A DNA stretch of 60,319 nt, counting the filler. It is 3 parts of 3 records of this genome, joined end to end, with 100 filler letters (N's around TTAATTAATTAA, not from the genome) between each part and the next. Parts side by side here need not be neighbours in the genome. Positions count along the whole stretch, not along the records: positions 23,412 to 47,412 come from SRR22947727_31; 2 more parts are not named here. One strand, 5' to 3'. The position numbers and the translations under genes were made by a program. The notes beneath the pieces are model-generated. The model worked only from the letters and a program-made list of their open reading frames with translations, searched no databases and was not told the origin of the DNA. Positions 23,312-60,319 of this stretch are shown here, one piece after another (positions within the stretch are counted from its first letter, which is position 1; every line of letters starts with the position of its first letter).

Positions 23312-23411
23312 NNNNNNNNNNNNNNNNNNNNNNNNNNNNNNNNNNNNNNNNNNNNTTAATTAATTAANNNNNNNNNNNNNNNNNNNNNNNNNNNNNNNNN
23401 NNNNNNNNNNN
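23312..23411. other. Artificial contig linker
   Basis: N44-TTAATTAATTAA-N44, which places stops in all six frames. Confidence 0.98.
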
Positions 23412-27883: not shown

Positions 27884-29224
27884 ATGGAGTTTATAAAGGG
27901 AAATTTAATAAAAATTACTCAAATGTTTTTTAAAACCTCAAGACTAAAAAAAAATATTTTTTCTGTGATTTCAATTACATCATTTAAAATTTTAACACAG
28001 ATTTTTTTTCCTCCTCTTATGATTTTTTTTTGGGGAGTTGATAATTTTGGTATTTGGGTATTTCTTATTTCTATTCCCAGTATTATTCAAATATTTAACT
28101 TTAATTTAACTGATGCATCAATTAATCAAATGTCAATATATAATGCTCAGAAAAAGTATAAGGAATCAAATAAGATATTTCAAAATACAATTGTATTTGT
28201 TCTTTTAAATATTTTATTTTTTTCCATGATGTTAATAATTTTTAATTTAGTAAAAGATTTTAATTTTACAATTTTAAATCAAATTAATGTTGAAGATTTA
28301 AAAATAATATTAATTTTATTATTTTCATCCGTTTATCTAAAATTATTTGAATCTATATTTACAACATCACTCTATTCAATTGGGAAGATTAATATTGGGA
28401 ATAATCTAGAAATTACAACTGATTTTTTTGCAAAATTCTTGATAATTTTTTCAGGAATATTTTACAACAATTTAATAGTGCCAGCTTTAATATATTTTAT
28501 TTTTAGTTTATTAAGATTTTTATTTAAATTTTATTTTTTTATAAAATTAAACAATCAATTAAATTTATCATTTAAATATGTATCAAAAAAAATAATTATG
28601 AGATTAATAAAACTATCAATTGGTCATATGTCTGATATATGGGCAAATTTAATAAGACATTCTGGTGTAATTTTTATTATCGGAATATTCTTAAATCCAT
28701 ACATGGTTGGATACATTTCTACTGTGAAAACTTTATTTTATTTTTTTCCCGCTTCTTTTTTCCTAAAAATTAATAGTGTTTCAAATTATGAATTTTCTAA
28801 TTTATTTGGTAAGAAAAAATTTAATTCTATTAAGAAATTTTTCTTTAAATATATTAAAATAATCCTAATATTAATATTGAGTTATTTTATTATATCTATT
28901 TTAATAGGCCCATATGTTTACAAAATATGGTTAAATAATGAGTATCAATTAAAAACACTGTTTTTATTAATCATTATTATTGATGCTAGCATGTTTATTT
29001 TAAGACAAGTCATGATATCACCCTTAACAGCTATAAACAAAAATATAACATTGGGAATTTCTGATTTTATATTTGCGATTATTGGAATTATGTTATTTTT
29101 TTTAAGTTTTTATTTCGCAAATAATTATATATATGCATTCACTTTAGTCGCAATTTGTTCAACACTAAGTTTAATATCCTCAATAATATATTCATTGTTT
29201 TTTTTTAAAAATATAAAAAAATGA
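27884..29224 (+). CDS. Wzx-like polysaccharide flippase (MOP superfamily)
   Basis: Many TM segments; N-terminal WG...FG.W pattern; glycan locus context. Start could be 27923. Confidence 0.75.
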   Translation: MEFIKGNLIKITQMFFKTSRLKKNIFSVISITSFKILTQIFFPPLMIFFWGVDNFGIWVFLISIPSIIQIFNFNLTDASINQMSIYNAQKKYKESNKIFQNTIVFVLLNILFFSMMLIIFNLVKDFNFTILNQINVEDLKIILILLFSSVYLKLFESIFTTSLYSIGKINIGNNLEITTDFFAKFLIIFSGIFYNNLIVPALIYFIFSLLRFLFKFYFFIKLNNQLNLSFKYVSKKIIMRLIKLSIGHMSDIWANLIRHSGVIFIIGIFLNPYMVGYISTVKTLFYFFPASFFLKINSVSNYEFSNLFGKKKFNSIKKFFFKYIKIILILILSYFIISILIGPYVYKIWLNNEYQLKTLFLLIIIIDASMFILRQVMISPLTAINKNITLGISDFIFAIIGIMLFFLSFYFANNYIYAFTLVAICSTLSLISSIIYSLFFFKNIKK

Positions 29225-30406: not shown

Positions 30407-31963
30407 TTATGAACTTTTTTGTTTAGTTAATAAATTAAAAAAAAATCTAAACAAAATAATGATTAAAAAGGTTTGAGGCATAGTTCTTATAATAAAAGAA
30501 ATCCATAAGTGAACTTCTGAAGCTGAGAAAAAATTAAAAACCCCCATTGAACTTGTGTAAAAAAAAATAATAATAAACGGACTTAAAATATTTTTTTTAT
30601 TGTCATAAAATGAGTCAAAGAATATAAAAATTGGTATAAAGCAAAAAAGTAAAATCACATAAAACCATAAGTCAAAAATAATAAATAATGTCATAAGTGC
30701 AGAGCCTATATTAAGTGTAGAACCTTGATAATCTAAATTACCATAAAGAAAACTTGCAGTAGAGAATGTTGTATATTTCAATTTATTAAAATTATTATCA
30801 AAAATTTTAATTATTGGATTAGGGATAATAGATATAATTTTATTTAATTGTATATCTTTAAGTAATTGAAGTTTTCTATAACTAATATTTTTTTTAACAT
30901 TAATAAAGTTATCATGAACTTTAATAATATTAATTCTATTAAAAAAGGAAATTGAATAGTTATTCTCACTATAAAGTTCATATACATTATACTTTTTATC
31001 ATTATATAAATTTTTTTTATTTGATGATGAAAATAAACTCTTTATAAATGAGTTTACATTTTGTATAGGACTTCTATCAAAATAATTCTGCCTTTCTAAT
31101 AAAAAATTGGTTGATAATTTCTCAAGATGATTTGAAAAAGGTAAAATTAAAAATAAAATTATAAAAAAAACAAAATAATTTTTTTTATTTAATTTAATTT
31201 TATATAAAAAAAATAGAAATAAAAAAATTAAAACTGTAAGTAAAAAAAAATCAAACAACATGGACCTATTATTTCTAGCAATTGCAATAAACATTAAAAG
31301 TATTAGATAGATTAATAAATAGAGATTATTTATTTTTAAAAAATTTTTACTTTGGAAACATTTATTAAATAAAATAATAATTGGAACATAAACAAGATAA
31401 TTTAGTCCATTTAAAAAATCTTTAAAAATAGATAAATCACCAGTGTTCTGAAGATAATAAGGTGTATTTAAATCGTAAATTAAAAATTTTGATAAAATTG
31501 CAATTAAAGATAAAAAATAAAAAAAATTTTTATTATTAAATTCAAAAAGATTTAATCTTATAAATAAAGATGTAAATTTATTTCTTAATTTATTTTTAAA
31601 ATCACTTTTTATATAAATTAAATGACTAAATATAATTATAAAGTTAAAAATAGTTAAGTTTAGAATAGTAGATAATGGATAATTAAGATTTAATGTAATT
31701 ACCGATATTTCAAAACTTTTCAAATAAAGAACACCACCTAAATTAATAAAATTTGAAAAAAAAATAATCATCAATGTTATAGGAGCATCAAAAAAATATT
31801 TTTTATTAAAACAGTAAAATGTTGTTATAACATTTGAAAATATTAATAAGGTTAAACAATAAAAATCATTAATATTATTTATTAAAAAAAGTTGAATTGA
31901 AAATGCAATAAAAGTTAAAAAAAGAATAAAATTTCTTGCAGTAATTAATTGTATAGAGTTCAA
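30407..31963 (-). CDS. Polytopic membrane protein, probable Wzy-like polymerase
   Basis: Roughly 11-13 hydrophobic segments, NNRS motif after a TM, large loop in the C-terminal half. Function inferred from context. Confidence 0.6.
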   Translation of the reverse strand: MNSIQLITARNFILFLTFIAFSIQLFLINNINDFYCLTLLIFSNVITTFYCFNKKYFFDAPITLMIIFFSNFINLGGVLYLKSFEISVITLNLNYPLSTILNLTIFNFIIIFSHLIYIKSDFKNKLRNKFTSLFIRLNLFEFNNKNFFYFLSLIAILSKFLIYDLNTPYYLQNTGDLSIFKDFLNGLNYLVYVPIIILFNKCFQSKNFLKINNLYLLIYLILLMFIAIARNNRSMLFDFFLLTVLIFLFLFFLYKIKLNKKNYFVFFIILFLILPFSNHLEKLSTNFLLERQNYFDRSPIQNVNSFIKSLFSSSNKKNLYNDKKYNVYELYSENNYSISFFNRINIIKVHDNFINVKKNISYRKLQLLKDIQLNKIISIIPNPIIKIFDNNFNKLKYTTFSTASFLYGNLDYQGSTLNIGSALMTLFIIFDLWFYVILLFCFIPIFIFFDSFYDNKKNILSPFIIIFFYTSSMGVFNFFSASEVHLWISFIIRTMPQTFLIIILFRFFFNLLTKQKSS

Positions 31964-40751: not shown

Positions 40752-42512
40752 TTAATTTTTAGAAAAAATTTTTTTTATTTCTTTATCAATATCTATTTTG
40801 TCAATTTCATTAAATTTATTATCTGAACTATTTTCTTTATTAAAATAATTTTTATTATCAAACACATTGGTAACAATTTTAGTTTTAGATAATGAGTCTG
40901 TTAAATCATCAATTTTTCTGGAAATACTACTTTTTTCTTTTTCAATTTCTTCCAATTGATCTTTGATTAATTTATATTTTTTTTGTGAATTAGATAATTC
41001 ATGACTTAACCTTAAGTTCTCATCCTGGTGAAAATTAAGCTTTTGTTTTATACTTTTTAGCTCATTTTCTTGTGGATGTAGATCTTCATTAGATTTTACT
41101 TTTAATAATTCGGAATTTAATTTCTCATTATTTTGAATTAATGCTTTTGCATTATTTTTGAGAGAAAATATTTCTTTTTTCAAATTATCGTTCATATCAT
41201 TAAGTAGTTTTTCACTATCTTTTAATAACTTAACTTGACTATCATCATTTAAAGTTTTTTGCTCATCTTCAAGCTCTTTATTTTTTTGCAATAATGAGTT
41301 TTCACTAATTATAAAATTGGTAATTTGCTTATTTAATAGATCGTTCTTTTTTAATATTTTTTCCTTATCAGCAATTATTGATAAAACATTATGCTCCATA
41401 TCTTTATTTTCATCTTTTATTTTATTATTAACTTTAACTAAATCACTATTAGTATTTGAAATAAGATCTAATTTTTTATGTAGAGATGAATTTTCTTTAT
41501 CTAGTAATTCTTTAGTTTGTAATAATTCAATTTTTTCATTGTTCAACTTCTTAATATTATCATCTAAGAATATTTTCTCCTCTTTAAAATTACTCTGTTC
41601 TAATTCATGTTCAGCTACTTGATTTTGATACTTATCATTAATTTCTATCAAAAGTTCTTTATTTTTTGAAAGTAGATTGATTTCTTTTTGAAGTTCTTCA
41701 TTATTAAAAATTAGTATTTTCTTATTTTCACTTATTAATTTTAATTCATGCTTTAAATTTTTTATTTCATTAAATAAATGATTTTTTGTATCTGTTAATA
41801 TTAATATATTATTTTCATTTGTCTTGTTAGAATTATCTAATTTACCATTGTAAATTAGAAGATTGTCAATCTTATCCTTAAATTTTAAATTTGATTTTTC
41901 TAAAGCTTCATTAGTTTCATTAATTAAAATTAATGATTTTTTCATTTCCAAATGATCAATTTTAAGTTTTTTATTTTCGTCTCGCAATTCTTCATTGTCT
42001 ATTAAAGTTATATCAAGTTTTTTTTGAATTTGAGATATCTTGAAATTTAAAATTTTTTCATTATTTGCTAATTCTTTAATTTTATTTTTTAATTCTTTAT
42101 TTATTATTAAATTTCTATAATCATTTTTTCTTAATTCTGATAAATAAACTTTTAATTTTTTAATCTCAACTTGTTGATCAATAATAATTTTTAAAGAATT
42201 TTTTTTAATTTTTTTATTAAATAATTTAAACAACTCATCAATAATATTTTGATTATCAGTAGTTTTATTTTCGTGAATCGTTGAATTATTTTGATCTATC
42301 TTTTTAAGATTATCAGTTTTTATATTTTTTGATTTTACTTCCTTATTAATAATTAATAATTCTGCTTTATCTAATATATTCTGTTTTTTTTTTAATTCCT
42401 TTTTATCTTGTTTTTTTTTAAGTTCTAAATTTGGTGCTTTATCTTTTTTATTGATGCTTAATATTTTTTCACTTGCATCAATTATTTCTTTTATAGAAAA
42501 AATTTTAATCAT
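40752..42512 (-). CDS. Long soluble coiled-coil protein of unknown function
   Basis: 586 aa with extended heptads and 21-residue periodicity; no signal peptide or TM seen. Directly downstream of wzc and the WcaJ-like gene. Confidence 0.85.
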   Translation of the reverse strand: MIKIFSIKEIIDASEKILSINKKDKAPNLELKKKQDKKELKKKQNILDKAELLIINKEVKSKNIKTDNLKKIDQNNSTIHENKTTDNQNIIDELFKLFNKKIKKNSLKIIIDQQVEIKKLKVYLSELRKNDYRNLIINKELKNKIKELANNEKILNFKISQIQKKLDITLIDNEELRDENKKLKIDHLEMKKSLILINETNEALEKSNLKFKDKIDNLLIYNGKLDNSNKTNENNILILTDTKNHLFNEIKNLKHELKLISENKKILIFNNEELQKEINLLSKNKELLIEINDKYQNQVAEHELEQSNFKEEKIFLDDNIKKLNNEKIELLQTKELLDKENSSLHKKLDLISNTNSDLVKVNNKIKDENKDMEHNVLSIIADKEKILKKNDLLNKQITNFIISENSLLQKNKELEDEQKTLNDDSQVKLLKDSEKLLNDMNDNLKKEIFSLKNNAKALIQNNEKLNSELLKVKSNEDLHPQENELKSIKQKLNFHQDENLRLSHELSNSQKKYKLIKDQLEEIEKEKSSISRKIDDLTDSLSKTKIVTNVFDNKNYFNKENSSDNKFNEIDKIDIDKEIKKIFSKN

Positions 42513-42570: not shown

Positions 42571-43986
42571 TTAATCGCCTTTGTATCTAATTAAAGCATA
42601 GAAAGTTTTAAATATTATGTATAAATCAAGCCAAATAGTCCAATTATTGAGATACCAAAGGTCAAATTCCATTCTTCTTTTCATCACTTCAGGCTTTGGT
42701 GTTGCGCCCCTAAGTCCATTTACTTGAGCCCATCCTGTTAATCCAGGATTACATTTATGTCTTTTTAAAAAATTACTAAATAAAGCTGCGTACTTTATAT
42801 CATGTTCAACCATATGTGGTCTTGGTCCAACAATTGACATATCACCTATTAAAACGTTATAAAATTGAGGTAGCTCATCAATACTATATCTTCTAATAAT
42901 TTTGCCAAATTTTAATACTCTTTTATCTCCATCTTGAACTTGAATTGTTTTGTCAAAAGTTTCTTTTCTTAAAGTTCTGAGTTTGTATATTTTGAACCTT
43001 CTACCATCCCAACCTGTTCTATTCTGAGTAAATAATAATGGAAACCCATCCTCTAAATAAATAAAAATCATAGCTATCAATAATAAAGGGAAAGATAATA
43101 ATAAAAATATTATTGAAAATAATTTATCTAATATAATTTTAATAAATAAAGCGATACCATGAAAACGTGATATTTCATAAAATTTAAAATCAAATTTATC
43201 TGCTAACAACTTTTTACCAGAAAGTTCATATTTGGTATTTAAATCAACAATTAATATATCCACAGAAAATTTTAGTATCTTTAATAGCGAATCTTCTATT
43301 TGAGTCTTACTTGTGTCTAAAAGCCATACCTGTCCCAATGCATGGTATTCCAATATAGATCTAATATCATCATTATTACTAAAAATTGGAAACTTAATTT
43401 CACTTTTTAATAAATTTTCATTATGTAGGTGAATATCTAAAATGATACAGCATTTAAAAACATAAATTTGGTCAAACTTATTACTTAATATTTTTTTTAT
43501 TTGCGCATAATTTCCTACTAACATTATATTTTTTTGAATTACATTTTTATTAACTAAGTAATCATAAAGAAAATTGAAAAATATCTTCGACAAAGCAAAA
43601 ATAAAAATTAAAAATATCAATGAATACAGGTAAGAAAAATCTAATATAAATTTATTCTGAAATATAAAAAATAGTGAAAAAATAATAATATTAGATACTA
43701 CAAAAATAAGAAGATCTTCTTTAATAAAAGAAATAAAATTTCTTTTATAATTTAATTCTTTTTTATTAATCAAACTAATTAAAAAATAAGTTAAACTTAA
43801 AATTATAGAAAAAAAATAATACTTAGATTGAGTATAGATGTTAAAATCAAACAAATCATAAATAGTGTTTTTTTCTAAAATTGAAAATATGTAATATGAT
43901 AATAAAATTATTATAGTTTTGCTTATGCTTACAAAAAGTATGAAGGCAGAATCATTATTTTGAAAAACTTTCTCAAGTTTAAACAT
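42571..43986 (-). CDS. Undecaprenyl-phosphate sugar-1-phosphate transferase (WcaJ-like priming transferase)
   Basis: Four N-terminal TMs; FKIYKLRT, SIDELPQF.NVL.GDMSIVGPRPH, PGLTGWAQVNG, DLWY. Confidence 0.93.
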   Translation of the reverse strand: MFKLEKVFQNNDSAFILFVSISKTIIILLSYYIFSILEKNTIYDLFDFNIYTQSKYYFFSIILSLTYFLISLINKKELNYKRNFISFIKEDLLIFVVSNIIIFSLFFIFQNKFILDFSYLYSLIFLIFIFALSKIFFNFLYDYLVNKNVIQKNIMLVGNYAQIKKILSNKFDQIYVFKCCIILDIHLHNENLLKSEIKFPIFSNNDDIRSILEYHALGQVWLLDTSKTQIEDSLLKILKFSVDILIVDLNTKYELSGKKLLADKFDFKFYEISRFHGIALFIKIILDKLFSIIFLLLSFPLLLIAMIFIYLEDGFPLLFTQNRTGWDGRRFKIYKLRTLRKETFDKTIQVQDGDKRVLKFGKIIRRYSIDELPQFYNVLIGDMSIVGPRPHMVEHDIKYAALFSNFLKRHKCNPGLTGWAQVNGLRGATPKPEVMKRRMEFDLWYLNNWTIWLDLYIIFKTFYALIRYKGD

Positions 43987-43988
43987 TA

Positions 43989-46115
43989 TTAATTTTTTGT
44001 ATAATATTGGGGGCTATAGCTGTAATAATAACTATAATAGCTGTCTTTTGATGTATCAAGATCATTCATAATGATGCCATCAACCTTTGCACCAACATTT
44101 TGAATTTTTTTGATTGAAGACATAAATGAAGCTGTTCTAGTTTCCTCTGATCTTATTACAAATAAGTTATAATCAGATGCTTGAGCAAGAATTAATGTAT
44201 CCGACACTGGTTGAACAGGTGGGGAGTCAATTATTACATAGTCATACTCTAATTTCAAAACATCAAAGAATTTTTTTACCTGCTCCTTGTTAACAATGTC
44301 TGACATATCAAATCTTTTTTCTCCTGAGGTAATAATATCAAGTTCTGTTCCTGGGACTTTGAATATTACATTTTTTAATTGAGCCATACCTGAAATAATT
44401 TCACCTAATCCTAAAATTTCCTTATCAAATTGATAAAAACCATTCAAAACTGATGGTCTTCTAATATCAGCCTCTATAAATAAGACTTTACTGGATTTTT
44501 CTAAAGACAAAGCAAGGTTGAAGGCAAAGGTTGTTTTTCCCTCAGATGGGTTGCTTGAGGTCACAAGATAGCTTTTATTTTTATGGAATTTTGACTCTAT
44601 TATTGCTCTTGAAGATCTTATTGATTCAGCAAAGCTCGATGAGGCATCTTCTATAAACATCTGTAATATATGATAACCTCTTTTTAAAAGTTCTACTCTT
44701 GGTAAAATTCCAATTTGAGGAATATTCGAAGACTCTAATGCTTCTGGACTTTTTATAACAGATGTATTCATTTCTCGATAATACAATAAAAACAAAACTC
44801 CTAATGCAGAGATTAAAAATGCCGTCATAGTAGATTTTAAAGGTGTAGGCGCAAAAGGACTAGAAGGTAAATTTGGAGTTTCTATAATTTTAAGTTTAGA
44901 AACTTGCAGATTTTGAGCTTCATTAGTTTCTTTTACTCTCTGTAAAAAAGATTCATATAACTTTTTACTACTCTCAACTTCTCTGGAAAATTGAAGCATT
45001 CCAGATTCTTTTTCTTCAATATCTCTAAGTTCATTAGTTGCTTTTTGCATTTCCTCCTCTGAAATTTGAATAAAATTATTAAGATTGCTAAGCTCGAATG
45101 CCTTTTGTTGAATAGTTTCATTTAAGATATCTTTTAATTGATTTTCTAAACTTCCATTTAATTCATTTGCCTGAATTATTTTTGGATGTTTATCGGTATA
45201 TATTAACAACAGGGATTGAATATTACTTTTATTTGCGTCTAAACTTTTTTTTATGTTTGAAATCTGATCAACAGATCTAAGATCTTCAACAGCCATTAAT
45301 GCTTCAACATCACCATCAGCTACTTTTATTGATAATAAATCATTTTGTTGTTTTTGATAATTACTTTTTGCTTCAATAATTCTTTTAGATATTGATTGAA
45401 TTTCATTAATTTTTAATTCTTTTACACTGCCAGTATCAACAAGGTTGTTTTCTCTTTTGTATTTAGATAGTTTTTTTTCTGCAATATTCATTTGAACAAC
45501 TAACTCTTTTAATCTTTCGGTAATTTTTATATTTGCATAATTGGTTATCTTAATTTTACTATCTATTTCATATCTTTGATAACTTTCAATAATACTATTT
45601 AATGCTAACTGTGATATTTTAGGATTCTTTGATACGAAAGATAATTCCAAAACATCACTTCTTGGTAAATTGTTTACAGTAAAATTTCTAGATAGTATTG
45701 ATTTTAAAAAGGCTTTGTCTACGACTTGTTTTTTGTTTAAAATTCTTTGAAAAAAATTTTGAGTATCTTGGGCATATAAATTTTTAAATTGAGTAATGTT
45801 TTTTTTATCAGCTAAGATATACTCATAAACTTCATCACTTTTTAGGATTGCCATTTGATTATTTATTCTATTATTGAGAGACTCAAGTGAATAAACCTCT
45901 TCTATGTTAGTAAAGTTTTGCTCGTCTGGTGCAACAACTATAGTTGCACTACTAAGATATTTTTTTTCTTGATTTAGTGAAAATAAAAGAGTTATTAAAG
46001 AGATCAATAAAGTTATTAAAACTAAATTTTTAAAATTTTTTTTGGCAACCATTAAAAAAAATTTAAAATCTCCAACATCAAAAATATCTAGTAATGATTT
46101 TATTTTATCTGTCAT
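43989..46115 (-). CDS. wzc: Polysaccharide co-polymerase / BY-kinase (Wzc/GumC)
   Basis: Two TMs around a coiled periplasmic domain; SSNPSEGKTT, IEADIRRP, IIDSPP; C-terminal Tyr cluster SYYSYYYSYSPQYY. Confidence 0.93.
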   Translation of the reverse strand: MTDKIKSLLDIFDVGDFKFFLMVAKKNFKNLVLITLLISLITLLFSLNQEKKYLSSATIVVAPDEQNFTNIEEVYSLESLNNRINNQMAILKSDEVYEYILADKKNITQFKNLYAQDTQNFFQRILNKKQVVDKAFLKSILSRNFTVNNLPRSDVLELSFVSKNPKISQLALNSIIESYQRYEIDSKIKITNYANIKITERLKELVVQMNIAEKKLSKYKRENNLVDTGSVKELKINEIQSISKRIIEAKSNYQKQQNDLLSIKVADGDVEALMAVEDLRSVDQISNIKKSLDANKSNIQSLLLIYTDKHPKIIQANELNGSLENQLKDILNETIQQKAFELSNLNNFIQISEEEMQKATNELRDIEEKESGMLQFSREVESSKKLYESFLQRVKETNEAQNLQVSKLKIIETPNLPSSPFAPTPLKSTMTAFLISALGVLFLLYYREMNTSVIKSPEALESSNIPQIGILPRVELLKRGYHILQMFIEDASSSFAESIRSSRAIIESKFHKNKSYLVTSSNPSEGKTTFAFNLALSLEKSSKVLFIEADIRRPSVLNGFYQFDKEILGLGEIISGMAQLKNVIFKVPGTELDIITSGEKRFDMSDIVNKEQVKKFFDVLKLEYDYVIIDSPPVQPVSDTLILAQASDYNLFVIRSEETRTASFMSSIKKIQNVGAKVDGIIMNDLDTSKDSYYSYYYSYSPQYYTKN

Positions 46116-46255
46116 ATCAATTTGGGTTATTTTAGTTGAATAATAAATTTTAGCGACTATATTTTGTAATAAAAGTTATGTTGAAAAATATAGCTTTTGT
46201 TGATTTTAAAGCATTATCTTTAATATTTTTATCCTATATTATATTACTTTTAGAA

Positions 46256-47389
46256 ATGACGATTATAAAAAAAATATTAAATGTATATATTGTATTATTA
46301 TTTTTAAATAGCTGTGTATCTCTTCCCGGTATTAATAAAAATCCTCAAAGTCAAAAACCTAATGAAAAAATTATACCTAATGAATACTCTATAAATGATG
46401 TAGAGATTAATCTTGTAGATTTGAATTCATTGACCGAAGATGAAATTGACAAACATAATAGAGATAAGGTTGAAGAGCTTGACTATAAAGTTAATAAAAT
46501 TTCAAACATTTATAACTATAAATATGAGTATATTTTAGGTGCAGCTGACAGCATATCAATTGATCTTACAGATACCGATGATTTAGATGGCACATATTTA
46601 ATTGATCAATATGGAATGATCGATTTACCTTTTATAGGAAAAATTAAATTAGCAGATTTAACTTTAAATGAAGCACAAAATATTTTAATGGAAGTTATAA
46701 AAGGATATTACAAAAATCCAGACATTCAATTAGAGATCCAAACTTACAATAGTAGTAAAATTCATATTGTTGGGGCTGTAAGAAACCAATTAACAATAAA
46801 CTTAGATCAAAAACCTATAAGATTAATAGAAGCTGCTATACAAGCTAACTTTAATCCCTCTTCTGAAGACAAGCTTTATGGAACCAAAGGTTTTTTAAGA
46901 AGAGAAGGAAAAGTTTATAAAATTAATTTAGCTAATGCGTTTAAAAGTGAAGATGAAAAAGAAAATTTTTATTTAAAGAAAGATGATGTTCTTTTTATTG
47001 ATAGAAATTCAGAATCAATACACGTATTCGGTGAAGTATTAAAACCAGGAGTTTATTATCCAAACTTAGATTATTCATTAACTGAACTAATTTCAACCAG
47101 TGGTTTAAATCAACTTACTGCAAATGCAAAAAACGTTTACGTTATAAGAGAAAAAAATAATTCTTTTTTAGAAATTAATATATTTAAGTTAAACATAAGA
47201 AACCCTATAAACTTAGTACTTGGAAGAAAATTTTTACTTCAAAAAAAAGATATTATATTTATTCCACCTACAGAAATTGTAAAATGGAATAGAGCTATAA
47301 GTTTATTGTTGCCTCAGACAGATTTGTTTAAATCATACAACCCTATTATTAACAATGGACTGCGAACATATAGAGAAGAACCTCAATAA
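46256..47389 (+). CDS. wza: Outer-membrane polysaccharide export lipoprotein
   Basis: ATG at 46256 gives a signal peptide with lipobox LNSC; G.IDLPFIG PES domain, SLBB repeats, C-terminal KWNRAISLLLP helix. Confidence 0.92.
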   Translation: MTIIKKILNVYIVLLFLNSCVSLPGINKNPQSQKPNEKIIPNEYSINDVEINLVDLNSLTEDEIDKHNRDKVEELDYKVNKISNIYNYKYEYILGAADSISIDLTDTDDLDGTYLIDQYGMIDLPFIGKIKLADLTLNEAQNILMEVIKGYYKNPDIQLEIQTYNSSKIHIVGAVRNQLTINLDQKPIRLIEAAIQANFNPSSEDKLYGTKGFLRREGKVYKINLANAFKSEDEKENFYLKKDDVLFIDRNSESIHVFGEVLKPGVYYPNLDYSLTELISTSGLNQLTANAKNVYVIREKNNSFLEINIFKLNIRNPINLVLGRKFLLQKKDIIFIPPTEIVKWNRAISLLLPQTDLFKSYNPIINNGLRTYREEPQ

Positions 47390-47412: not shown

Positions 47413-47512
47413 NNNNNNNNNNNNNNNNNNNNNNNNNNNNNNNNNNNNNNNNNNNNTTAATTAATTAANNNNNNNNNNNNNNNNNNNNNNNNNNNNNNNN
47501 NNNNNNNNNNNN
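47413..47512. other. Artificial contig linker
   Basis: N44-TTAATTAATTAA-N44, identical to the first linker. Confidence 0.98.
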
Positions 47513-47645
47513 GTGACGTTGGATGATTAACTAATTTTTTTTCTTTGTAATCTAAGTTTAAATTTCTACTTATTTTATCATTTGATGTGTCTAATAATTT
47601 TTCTGATGCATCGACAATTTCTTTTATAGAAAAAATTTTAATCAT
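47513..47645 (-). CDS. 5' fragment of a second copy of the coiled-coil gene (cut by contig end)
   Basis: MIKIFSIKEIVDASEKLL versus MIKIFSIKEIIDASEKIL at 42512. First 29 coding nt are identical (47617-47645 = 42484-42512). Confidence 0.85.
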
Positions 47646-47727: not shown

Positions 47728-48459
47728 TTATTTAATAATAATTTTTTCATTTAAAACGATTTGAAACAATTTAAATGACTTTAAGTATCTTGGCAAAAAT
47801 ACACTAGGTTTGAATAAAATTCTAATAAACCAACCTAAAAAAAACTTATCGAAAATTTGATTTATTGGTGCTTGGTCTTTTGTAAAAAAAGATATTGCTG
47901 CTCCAGTACAAATAATTTTTGTTTTCTTTTTTAAATTTTTTTTTAAATAAAAACCTAAAATCTCTTGAACACCTCCTCCCAAATTTAAAATAATAAAATC
48001 TGGTTTTAAATTATTAGCTATCTGTAATAATTTTTTATCTTTTATTTTTAATTCATTGTAAATAGGGGAAATATAATTAAATAACTTATTTCTAGGAATT
48101 CCTAAATTAGTAAAAAAAAGTTTATTATTTGTTGAAAGTTCTGAATTTGGATCTACTGACAATATCTTAATATTTTTATTCTTCTTAAATTGGTTAAAAA
48201 GTAGTTTTAAAAAAAGATATCCTGAAAACTTTTTTACACTAATATTCTTTAATATTTTTAATAATAAAACAAGATACCCACTATCAAAGAAAACATAATC
48301 AGAATTTCTTAAAGATCTTAAATATTTTTTATCTTCATTTATTGTTGCAAGACCAGGACCTGAAGGGAAAACAAATAATCCTGATTTTTTAATTATCTTT
48401 GTAAAATCTTTTTTATTAAGATTGATAAATTTTATTTTCTTAAATAATATAAATATCAT
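47728..48459 (-). CDS. WecB/TagA/CpsF (GT26) glycosyltransferase
   Basis: FFDSG, KFSG, LNLGGGVQE, CTGAAISF, LGWFIR...P...LPRY. Confidence 0.85.
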   Translation of the reverse strand: MIFILFKKIKFINLNKKDFTKIIKKSGLFVFPSGPGLATINEDKKYLRSLRNSDYVFFDSGYLVLLLKILKNISVKKFSGYLFLKLLFNQFKKNKNIKILSVDPNSELSTNNKLFFTNLGIPRNKLFNYISPIYNELKIKDKKLLQIANNLKPDFIILNLGGGVQEILGFYLKKNLKKKTKIICTGAAISFFTKDQAPINQIFDKFFLGWFIRILFKPSVFLPRYLKSFKLFQIVLNEKIIIK

Positions 48460-48608: not shown

Positions 48609-49931
48609 ATGCCTTTAAATATTTCATTCTTAAATTCAAATGATAAAAAAAGAATAAAAAAAAATATATACGGTAATGGTTTCAATTTTTTATTAACCAT
48701 TTTATCTCAGTTATTCTACATTCCCATAATGTTATTATCATGGGGTGCTACACAAACTGGTTATTGGATATTTTTTATTGCAGTCCCGTCAATCTTAAGT
48801 TTTTGGAAATTAGATTTTAGCGAAGCATCAAGACAAGAACTTACATTGAACAAGAAAAAAAATCCAAATGTAGTATACTCAATAAGTTTAATTTTTACTT
48901 TATTGACTGTCGTAATTTTTGGTATGATTTATTTTTTTATAAATCTAAATTTTTTAGAAAATTTCGAAGCTATTAAAAATCACAATATAACTAGTTTAAA
49001 TATTATATTAATCCTAATTTTCTATGGATTTTCTTTAGAGCTTATAACAAATAATCATTTAATATTAACTCAATATAAAGGTAAAACTTATATATCGGAA
49101 ATAATAGTTGGCCTGTATATAGCACTTGAAAGAATCTTGATTCCCTTAATTGGTTTTATTACAATTAATTTATTATATGCAGCTATTGCATACGCCATAA
49201 TTAAAACTTTAAAATTTATAACAGTAAAATTTATAATAAATTTGTCAGTTACTTTTAAATTAAATTTCTTTAAAATTACAAAAAAAGAAATAATAAATAT
49301 TTTTATAAAATCTAAAAATATTTATTATTATAATATATCAAATATAATTAATGTTTCAGGTTTTACATATTTTATAGCATATTTTTTTAGTCCAGAAATT
49401 ATTACTTTAGTGAATGCGCTTCAAACGATGTTTAAATTTTTAGTACTTAGGATTAATAGAGTTTTCATTGATGTGTTTTCGTTTGAATTTGGCAATTTTT
49501 ATTCAAAAAAAAAATACTCTAATATTGTAAATGCGTATAATTTTCAAAAAAAATATGTCTATATATTCTTATTATCATTTTTAATCATTGGCTATTTTAT
49601 AGGACCTTACATCTTCAATTATTGGACAATAGATAAATTTACTGAATTTCGTTCTGTCATTGTACTTGTGATTTTAGAATGTATTTTTACAATGTTAGCA
49701 TATAATGAGATTTTATTAGGTATGGCTTTAAATAAATTGAAAAAAATTACTTTTTATGCACTAGTTATAAATATTTTATCTTTTGGCTGTTTATTATTTT
49801 TTGAAAATTTAAGATTAGATCTTAATAATATTTATTACATACTTATACTAAAAAGTTTTTTTATATACTTAATGAATAAAAATTATAATTTAAAACTTAT
49901 TAATAATTTACTAGTAAAAAAAAGTATTTAA
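48609..49931 (+). CDS. Wzx-like polysaccharide flippase
   Basis: Many TMs; N-terminus SQLFYIPIMLLSWG...GYW...VPS resembles 27884-29224. Confidence 0.75.
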   Translation: MPLNISFLNSNDKKRIKKNIYGNGFNFLLTILSQLFYIPIMLLSWGATQTGYWIFFIAVPSILSFWKLDFSEASRQELTLNKKKNPNVVYSISLIFTLLTVVIFGMIYFFINLNFLENFEAIKNHNITSLNIILILIFYGFSLELITNNHLILTQYKGKTYISEIIVGLYIALERILIPLIGFITINLLYAAIAYAIIKTLKFITVKFIINLSVTFKLNFFKITKKEIINIFIKSKNIYYYNISNIINVSGFTYFIAYFFSPEIITLVNALQTMFKFLVLRINRVFIDVFSFEFGNFYSKKKYSNIVNAYNFQKKYVYIFLLSFLIIGYFIGPYIFNYWTIDKFTEFRSVIVLVILECIFTMLAYNEILLGMALNKLKKITFYALVINILSFGCLLFFENLRLDLNNIYYILILKSFFIYLMNKNYNLKLINNLLVKKSI

Positions 49932-59400: not shown

Positions 59401-60319
59401 CTAATCTCCTTTATACTTAATTAGTGCATAAAAAGTCTTAAATATAATGTATAAATCTAACCATATAGTCCAATTATTCAAATACCATAAATCAAATTCC
59501 ATACGCCTTTTCATAATTTCTGGTTTTGGTGTTGCTCCTCTTAATCCATTAACTTGTGCCCAACCCGTCAAACCTGGATTGCATTTGTGTCTTTTTAAAA
59601 AGTTAAAAAATAAATTTGAATAATGAATATCATGCTCAACCATATGTGGCCTAGGGCCTACTATTGACATATCGCCTTTTAAGACATTAAAAAATTGAGG
59701 CAATTCATCTATACTAAATCTTCTAATCATTTTACCAATTTTCAATAATCTCTGATCATCTTTTGTTACTTGTTTTGTTTTATCAAAACTTGTTTTTCTT
59801 AAAGATCTTAATTTATAAATTTTAAATCTTCTGCCATCCCAACCAGTTCTGTTTTGTGTAAACATTATAGGAAAACCATCTTCTAAATATATGGCAATAC
59901 TAAATATCAGTAAAATTGGAGCAGATATAATCAAAAATATGATAGATAAAATTTTATCAAGTAATATTTTAATAAACAAACTAATACCATAAAACCTCGA
60001 ATACTCAAAAAATTCATATTTGTATTTATTCCCTAAAAGTTGATCACCTTTAAGATTTATATTATCTTCTAAATGAATACTAAGTGTGTCAACAGAAAAT
60101 TGAATAATTTTATTAAAAGCTTTGTCTTTTTTTTTATCTTTTGCATTTAAAATCCAAATTTGACCCAATGAATGATACTCTAAAATAGATCTAATATCTT
60201 CATCTTCATTAAAAATAGGAAATTTAAATTCACTTCTAAAGTATTTAATATTATGATTTTTAAAATCTGTAATTAAGCAACATTTAAATACAAAAATTTT
60301 ATCAAATTTTTCTCTTAAT
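59401..60319 (-). CDS. Second WcaJ-like priming sugar-1-phosphate transferase (5' part outside window)
   Basis: Same motifs as 42571-43986. The frame stays open to the window edge (LREKFDKIFVFKCCLITD...DIRSILEYHSLGQIW), aligning with the first copy, so the track's start at 60168 is internal. Confidence 0.93.
   Translation of the reverse strand, partial: LREKFDKIFVFKCCLITDFKNHNIKYFRSEFKFPIFNEDEDIRSILEYHSLGQIWILNAKDKKKDKAFNKIIQFSVDTLSIHLEDNINLKGDQLLGNKYKYEFFEYSRFYGISLFIKILLDKILSIIFLIISAPILLIFSIAIYLEDGFPIMFTQNRTGWDGRRFKIYKLRSLRKTSFDKTKQVTKDDQRLLKIGKMIRRFSIDELPQFFNVLKGDMSIVGPRPHMVEHDIHYSNLFFNFLKRHKCNPGLTGWAQVNGLRGATPKPEIMKRRMEFDLWYLNNWTIWLDLYIIFKTFYALIKYKGD

Follow-up and report, generated by a model that had tools for sequence, protein, structure and literature searches.

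Introduction

Export of surface polysaccharides through Wza and Wzc is described with a fixed parts list, and the choice of the export site in Gram-negative bacteria is only partly known. In the Wzx/Wzy-dependent systems of this type, such as those for group 1 capsules, colanic acid and holdfasts, Wzy-type chains are polymerised in the periplasm, whereas the pathway of WbdD is of the ABC-transporter type with polymerisation in the cytoplasm. RocS of Streptococcus pneumoniae is a coiled coil with a terminal amphipathic helix and acts as a chromosome-segregation factor encoded outside the capsule locus. According to the accessible text of two studies, the location of pneumococcal capsule synthesis is set through the BY-kinase system (PMC10233549), and RocS is a lineage-specific partner of the capsule tyrosine kinase that binds CpsD (PMC12203958). 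Since deletion of rocS did not move CpsC (PMC10233549, same portion of the text), RocS is only a partial precedent for the protein considered here. In Klebsiella pneumoniae, the accessory protein RmpD binds Wzc and changes capsule chain length (PMC10294653, accessible part). We use RocS, RmpD and the pneumococcal BY-kinase as analogies, not as homologies.

The polysaccharide island of Pelagibacterales (SAR11) described below likewise contains Wza, a Wzc with Walker A motif and tyrosine-rich tail, WcaJ, WecG and an O-antigen-ligase-like (Wzy_C) gene. It differs from the known Wza-Wzc systems by a constant extra gene for a cytoplasmic coiled-coil protein, the rod protein, and it is usually neighboured by a large FecR-domain protein and a small membrane protein. 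In contrast to RocS, the rod gene occurs only in the island and encodes 239 to 586 aa, and whereas RmpD is small, the rod protein is long and soluble; binding of the rod protein to the Wzc kinase would be the feature shared with both. Among the papers within reach of our literature search, which did not extend to most subscription papers, none dealt with the rod protein or with a Wzc island in Pelagibacter. According to a paper from 2025, no capsular envelope is known from Pelagibacterales, and the part of its text that is accessible does not mention wzc or wza (PMC11898729). The main text of a preprint on 135 complete genomes, as far as accessible, contains no mention of wzc, coiled coils or FecR (10.64898/2026.04.03.716430).

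Results

Polysaccharide genes in the window

The window, by which we mean the whole stretch of 60,319 nucleotides that was analysed, consists of three contigs joined by two identical artificial linkers (N44-12 nt-N44), so that the gene order across the linkers is not biological. The GC contents of the contigs are 27.7%, 22.5% and 21.2%. The following features surround the rod gene:

42571..43986, minus strand: wcaJ-type priming sugar transferase, 471 aa (PF02397)
43989..46115, minus strand: wzc polysaccharide co-polymerase/tyrosine kinase, 708 aa (Pfam Wzz, GNVR and AAA_31 matches; alignment)
46178..47389, plus strand: wza outer-membrane export protein (Poly_export and SLBB, Pfam)
47413..47512, no strand: artificial contig linker (N44, 12 nt with stops, N44), with an identical copy at 23312-23411
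47728..48459, minus strand: wecG/tagA-family glycosyltransferase (PF03808), upstream of the second family copy
59401..60318, minus strand: second wcaJ, 70% identical to the first, with its 5' end beyond the window

In the alignment, the Wzc of the window has the Walker A motif and the tyrosine-rich tail, and wza is divergent from wzc-wcaJ. Membrane proteins encoded at 48609-49931, 27884-29224 and 30407-31963 occupy the usual places of flippase and polymerase; Pfam gave no match for the proteins starting at 48609 and 30407 at E 0.01 and none for the one at 27884 at E 0.1, and NCBIfam matched none of the three. A promoter scan stayed at chance level (16 found, compared to 17.8 in shuffled sequences) and no terminator was found. 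Contigs from RNA libraries of two studies cover pieces of the ORF at 40752-42512 and two of them bridge the gap to wcaJ, with DNA in the libraries as a possible source.

The rod protein and its predicted architecture

The rod gene begins 58 nt past the wcaJ stop (42571) and is read in the same direction as wzc-wcaJ. It is composed of the following parts:

40752..42512, minus strand: long-form coiled-coil protein, 586 aa (P0001); no Pfam or NCBIfam match; 47 homologues
42456..42512, minus strand: conserved N-terminal helix H1, residues 1-19, long form only (alignment; model helix 7-19; PopZ comparison)
42261..42455, minus strand: disordered basic linker, residues 20-84, net charge +9, variable among homologues (pLDDT <50; charge)
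42183..42254, minus strand: conserved motif of a basic amphipathic helix and a turn, residues 87-110, where the rod begins; a candidate for anchoring to a membrane or a polyanion (alignment; hydrophobic moment 0.60, net +3)
41091..42203, minus strand: segmented coiled-coil rod, residues 104-474, of varying length across the family (model; hydropathy; spacing tallies)
40755..41069, minus strand: CTD, residues 482-586, with a 60-residue coiled coil, a disordered spacer and a helix at 575-583; the only part common to all forms (alignment; model)

Part of what a preliminary description of this DNA had read from the letters held up. ORF coordinates and Pfam agree with a 586-aa ORF lying 58 nt downstream of, and co-oriented with, wzc-wcaJ; the lack of a signal peptide and of transmembrane segments fits a 19-residue hydropathy that peaks at 0.8; and its figure of about 400 helical residues is close to the sum of 406 for the AlphaFold helices 104-334, 359-423, 426-474 and 482-542. 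The hydrophobic period of residues 104-334 is 3.5, a value reached in 9 of 500 shuffles, and the coiled-coil assignment made there is sound. The AlphaFold model (49 sequences; mean pLDDT 71.5, pTM 0.26) additionally contains helices 7-19 and 87-97 and the terminal helix 575-583, with disorder at 20-84 and between 542 and 575. The protein is predicted to be cytoplasmic, without a membrane-spanning segment, and at the established rise of 0.148 nm per residue its helix is predicted to measure approximately 60 nm.

Pfam and NCBIfam returned no match to any named family, and the full-length match to a characterised family that the preliminary description had mentioned as an argument against its proposal was not found. 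Fold searches gave two matches with the full model (E 4.6 and 4.9) and nothing but generic long helices with the short-form model (best Z 6.9). Because these matches were weak or generic, the family is neither assigned to a known fold nor established as a new one. PDB sequence searches yielded generic coiled coils, with E 0.054 for the best CTD match, and the Pfam search of 50 CTDs (table for the first member, tally) yielded only sub-threshold coiled-coil families. An Atlas search with the homologue P0019 returned three unnamed clusters of the same kind and one lead of 0.84. SMC proteins, which have Walker A/B ATPase head halves and a hinge, were rejected as relatives because of the missing Pfam/NCBIfam match and the all-helical model, and the label 'chromosome segregation ATPase' on 2 of the 47 homologues was not borne out. 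ZapB gave only a generic match of 63 columns (E 0.0015) and is a pure coiled coil of about 80 aa, compared to 239-586 aa in the family. A phospho-tyrosine site in the CTD was likewise discarded; tyrosine is present in 39 of 50 sequences, but the window protein has histidine.

Forms and distribution of the family

The named ones among the 47 homologues found in the protein search are hypothetical proteins of Pelagibacterales or bear an automatic label; P0026 and P0027 looked chimeric and were excluded from later alignments. Searched against 1.84 billion representatives, which are listed without taxonomy, a profile of the CTD (last 114 residues) matched 190 clusters at E<=1e-10, a number that rose to 274 at the looser threshold of E<=1e-3. 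With clustering at 50% identity, the family comprises at least 190 clusters, and 42 of the 150 listed clusters were inspected; one match to the profile, P0094 with 3881 aa, was a repeat-protein false positive. The CTD was not found in 400 other alphaproteobacterial genomes, the single match in this set of 401 being the Pelagibacterales seed itself. In viral contigs, none of 31 pattern matches was confirmed as a family member, and a contig scan with a single protein as query returned only 2 loci. The family is real, unnamed and restricted to Pelagibacterales.

Three forms, designated long, short and 'B', have only the CTD in common. The long form (299-586 aa) consists of H1, linker, basic mid motif and rod, whereas the short form of about 240 aa has a different amphipathic N-terminus and fewer than 90 rod residues ahead of the CTD; the 'B' form comes after a zinc-ribbon coiled-coil gene in one clade. 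Between two conserved motifs, the spacing in the long form ranges from 120 to 394 residues, and rod length changes mostly in steps of 7 residues: among 74 sequences, which as relatives are not independent, 40 fall into one heptad register, 15 into a second and 19 elsewhere. The N-terminal part has been swapped between versions that carry basic amphipathic helices. In the long form this helix (residues 87-104) has a hydrophobic moment of 0.60 and a net charge of +3; in the short form, the N-termini had moments of 0.53-0.68 in all six tested, with net charges of +2 to +5 in five and 0 in one. No link between rod length and the length of the FecR protein was seen by eye in 9 genomes.

Association with the Wza-Wzc island

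Among 401 Pelagibacterales genomes, the CTD (E<=1.4e-19) and wzc (E<=1e-10) were detected in the same 15 genomes, and neither was detected in the other 386. These genomes are incomplete, and the wzc search used a single Wzc query with 2 candidates scored per genome. Of 13 weaker CTD matches (E>1e-5), 12 were SlyX-like ORFs of 68-91 aa, and one (L137) had no matching ORF. In an overlapping sample of 251 genomes at family level, the full-length profile was found in 10 and wzc in 11, the eleventh containing a divergent family copy directly after wcaJ.

Inspection of 16 genomes (the 15 plus G002) placed the rod gene inside the island in every case. It follows wzc directly in 3 genomes and wcaJ directly in 4; in 4 others wcaJ and a phosphatase precede it, in 1 wcaJ and two further genes, and the last 4 have it at the far island end. 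In 12 of the 16 it is therefore at most 3 genes downstream of wzc, while in the remaining 4 it is at the distal island end. The proposal of the preliminary description that the protein is a dedicated accessory factor came out well in its own test, with homologues accompanying wzc in 15 of 15 cases among the 401 genomes and lying in the island in 16 of 16. The rod protein is a fixed companion of the Pelagibacterales Wza-Wzc export island.

The usual module comprises the small membrane protein, the FecR-domain protein, the O-antigen-ligase-like gene, wza, wzc, often wcaJ, and the rod gene. In G001, G073 and G127, where a long WcaJ was not found, the rod gene remains beside wzc, which weakens the suggestion of the preliminary description that WcaJ is a partner. 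It is also kept in G139, where the FecR protein was not found; the FecR protein was likewise not found in the fragmented genome G320. The islands of G001, G073 and G127 (L001, L099, L105) are minimal, comprising wza, wzc, the ligase-like gene, the FecR protein and the rod gene; they lack wcaJ, have a wecG at most, and may draw their substrate from another polysaccharide cluster. Among 69 metagenome loci, many of them short, 43 contained a polysaccharide gene and 21 wzc, wza or a wcaJ-like gene. In 8 of 45 metagenome loci (L003, L004, L006, L031, L033, L034, L043, L045), the gene upstream encodes a CapD-type dehydratase and the stretch examined is without wzc; several of these loci contain DegT, acetyltransferase and short sugar transferase genes.

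Several further observations concern the neighbourhood of the module. The FecR-domain protein (685-1907 aa) adjoins the O-antigen-ligase-like gene and wza in most islands (L001 2594-5161; G124 762594-768317; G127 92401-94458) and is a candidate for a glycosylated surface protein or polysaccharide anchor. One Wzc clade (L008 4958-8737; G029, G093, G124, G338) has a fixed run of metallophosphoesterase, long rod gene, zinc-ribbon coiled-coil gene and second CTD gene. A low-molecular-weight tyrosine phosphatase (PF01451, Wzb) was not found in 3 of 5 island genomes searched (G099, G029 and G150, all with a Wzc kinase) and none was inside the islands; the metallophosphoesterase of the clade, which is located between wcaJ and the rod gene, may stand in for Wzb. 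One island of G150 retains what is left of two decayed genes, a second wcaJ and a further CTD gene (C1 467841-468245 and 483293-483592), a trace of island recombination. The FecR-less island L110 (G139 C2 15002-19525) is flanked by a long secreted-looking protein and a 574-aa neighbour, which by eye we take to resemble a two-partner secretion pair.

A second family member in the window

47513..47645, minus strand: first 44 codons (5' end) of a second family member, truncated at the contig end; 39/44 residues identical to a 583-aa member in L064

The match to the full-length 583-aa protein makes this fragment a true, if truncated, family member. Of the near-identity of N-termini reported in the preliminary description, the first 18 residues retain 16 matches, but over the length of the fragment only 21 of 44 agree. 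The second copy lies on a separate contig with a wcaJ of its own, is cut by the linker and follows wecG rather than wzc/wcaJ, so the statement that the gene occurs in "both loci" does not stand as given. Since the two loci are on different contigs, their presence is also a weak argument for recurrence within one genome. Both layouts, with the rod gene either directly after wcaJ or at the far end of the island, exist elsewhere as alternative single islands, and each of the 15 wzc-positive genomes has one wzc locus. For these two reasons it is plausible that the assembly combines two strains, and the two "loci" of the window may be allelic islands. Runs X15 and X16 contain all sampled words of the wzc-wcaJ-rod stretch; for the contig with the second copy, the 32 of 638 pieces that were listed include only ones of at most 31 bases from these runs. 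This pattern fits two strains, with the proviso that missing cover proves nothing.

Comparison with Wzc sequences

Distances between CTDs and between Wzc kinase domains were correlated over 26 loci (rho 0.58, 0 of 2000 permutations), mainly due to one clade of 11 that is common to both trees, and within the Wzc group of the window rho was 0.32 (90 of 2000 permutations). The correlation largely reflects shared descent. In G162, a Wzc kinase domain 96% identical to that of the window is paired with a 239-aa form whose CTD is only 40% identical; because of this pairing, the comparison shows no interface that co-evolves tightly. A gene of this kind is thus required, but its alleles can be exchanged, which is easier to reconcile with a docking motif or a general role in structure than with a tight interface or an exact ruler. 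Complex prediction for the Wzc kinase domain with the CTD, run without alignments, gave a median of 0.33 (0.28, 0.35, 0.33) compared to a mark of 0.34, while three controls gave 0.00; we take this outcome as evidence neither of binding nor of its absence.

Discussion

As a tentative explanation, which we prefer to the others considered and which keeps the suggestion of a Wzc scaffold or localiser made in the preliminary description, the rod protein may be a coiled-coil scaffold in the cytoplasm, tethered to the membrane, that clusters the Wzc/Wza machine or sets its position. The basic amphipathic helices near the N-terminus would, judging from helix statistics, bind the inner membrane, the rod would oligomerise and set a reach rather than an exact distance, and the CTD with its terminal helix might dock on the cytoplasmic kinase of Wzc. 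Wzc is proposed as docking partner because, of the genes that always accompany the rod gene, it alone encodes a cytoplasmic domain of some size. The island genes all travel together, however, so that co-occurrence names no partner; wza and the O-antigen-ligase-like gene accompany the rod gene as well, in 4 of the 16 genomes the gene sits at the island border at a distance from wzc, the 8 CapD-type loci show no wzc in the stretch examined, and the co-occurrence could arise from linkage alone. Such linkage is the core of an explanation that we regard as unlikely, in which the gene is a passenger at a conserved island edge, inherited together with wza-wzc and unrelated to export in its role, e.g. 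as a decoy or another accessory. The gene is often the last of the island, before galE or a gcvT-like gene; its sequence changes much faster than that of Wzc, other versions replace it at the same site, and some copies have decayed, one in G150 to a remnant with stops and one in G180 that is broken at its 3' end. Yet G150 retains intact copies beside the remnant, and in 401 genomes the gene was never seen without wzc nor missing where wzc was present, across Wzc alleles of 44% to 91% identity and different chromosomal neighbourhoods. A passenger would also have to account for a rod gene that stays while glycosyltransferases, wcaJ and FecR come and go.

Comparably unlikely in our estimation is a self-assembling protein of the intermediate-filament-like crescentin/FilP kind, which would line the membrane as a filament or lattice needed during synthesis of this envelope layer, without binding Wzc directly. 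The head, the segmented coiled-coil rod, the tail and the lack of any known or catalytic domain resemble crescentin and FilP, rod architecture varies in that family as well, and conserved ends with a heptad-stepped rod would suit end-to-end assembly. The same features agree with the definition of rod-domain proteins (a segmented coiled coil of >80 residues, flanked by head and tail, without a known domain) in the accessible part of PMC2680258. According to that part of the text, such proteins are nevertheless common and were found in 21 of 26 genomes, which makes the architecture unspecific. In the PDB sequence search, crescentin appeared only among generic coiled-coil matches (E 6.5e-4), below myosins and dynactin; the family differs from crescentin and FilP in being accessory and island-linked, with generic coiled-coil likeness only. 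Short forms with fewer than 90 rod residues before the CTD also speak against a filament, and a shape protein would not be expected in just 4% of genomes. Very improbable is a ruler in the manner of WbdD, advanced in the preliminary description, in which rod length sets the chain length of the polymer. The family does share with WbdD a coiled-coil spacer of variable length within a polysaccharide locus, and conserved ends with an intervening rod that varies mostly by heptads would suit a ruler. The rod protein lacks the terminating enzyme domain of WbdD, however, with no kinase or methyltransferase domain in Pfam and NCBIfam and no globular domain in the model, and the pathway is of the Wzc/Wza type, in which polymerisation is periplasmic and out of reach of a cytoplasmic rod. 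Near-identical Wzc alleles moreover accompany 586-aa and 239-aa forms, and the gene persists in minimal islands without wcaJ.

The remaining alternative, which we consider quite unlikely, is a remote stand-in for PopZ, i.e. a polar hub with a ZitP-like zinc-ribbon partner that would confine the polysaccharide to one pole as a holdfast-like adhesin. The short N-terminal helix, the disordered linker with a hydrophobic motif, the helical C-terminus and, in one Wzc clade, the Zn_ribbon_4 coiled-coil gene that follows the rod gene together with a second CTD gene resemble the PopZ (DUF2497, PF10691)/ZitP arrangement. Over 13 columns, H1 and the N-terminal helix of PopZ align in the expected register. 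Of 80 family N-termini, 62% exceed the 99th percentile of the scores for 614 background N-termini, and 53 of the 80 members have a short hydrophobic linker motif similar to one in PopZ linkers. The zinc-ribbon neighbour has tryptophan at the position that ZitP needs for PopZ binding (PMC5182065, accessible part). PopZ (PF10691) itself was not found in 5 of 5 Pelagibacter genomes (G099, G029, G073, G150, G180), compared to 84 of 101 genomes of the class, a tally that includes the genome G447, flagged as unpublished. However, hhalign of H1 gave a probability of 2% (E 0.02) and that of the C-terminal domains 0.07%, with 29 PopZ genes and their C-termini as comparison set, and the mean H1 score of 14.5 (99th percentile of the background 13.5) is far from the 66 of PopZ against itself. 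PF10691 (DUF2497) matched neither P0001 nor any of 50 CTDs. The linker at residues 20-84 is basic (net +9) with one proline or glycine, not acidic and proline-rich as in PopZ, the rod is long, and the short and B forms are without H1. The Zn_ribbon_4 gene occurs in 5 of 5 genomes tested, with or without an island, and none adjoins the rod gene in the window. Each of the 5 Pelagibacter genomes tested was found to encode a membrane protein with a ZitP-like zinc ribbon. The protein is not a PopZ; the N-terminal likeness is a weak helix pattern and the resemblance a loose one of design.

For the biology of SAR11, the most abundant marine bacteria, the island indicates a second system for surface polysaccharides in 15 of 401 genomes, which has a bearing on phage receptors, grazing and particle attachment. 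A bolder reading, to which we give little credence at present, is that a mobile island of the capsule or holdfast type, found in approximately 4% of SAR11 genomes, brings along its own lineage-specific cytoskeletal scaffold of up to 60 nm for positioning, which would replace the missing PopZ and Wzb, dock on Wzc and site a coat or adhesin. With at least 190 clusters, and wzc in every case seen, the family is a direct candidate for an additional component that positions or regulates Wza-Wzc export. If the scaffold role is true, the rod proteins would represent a new class of obligate component for Wza-Wzc systems.
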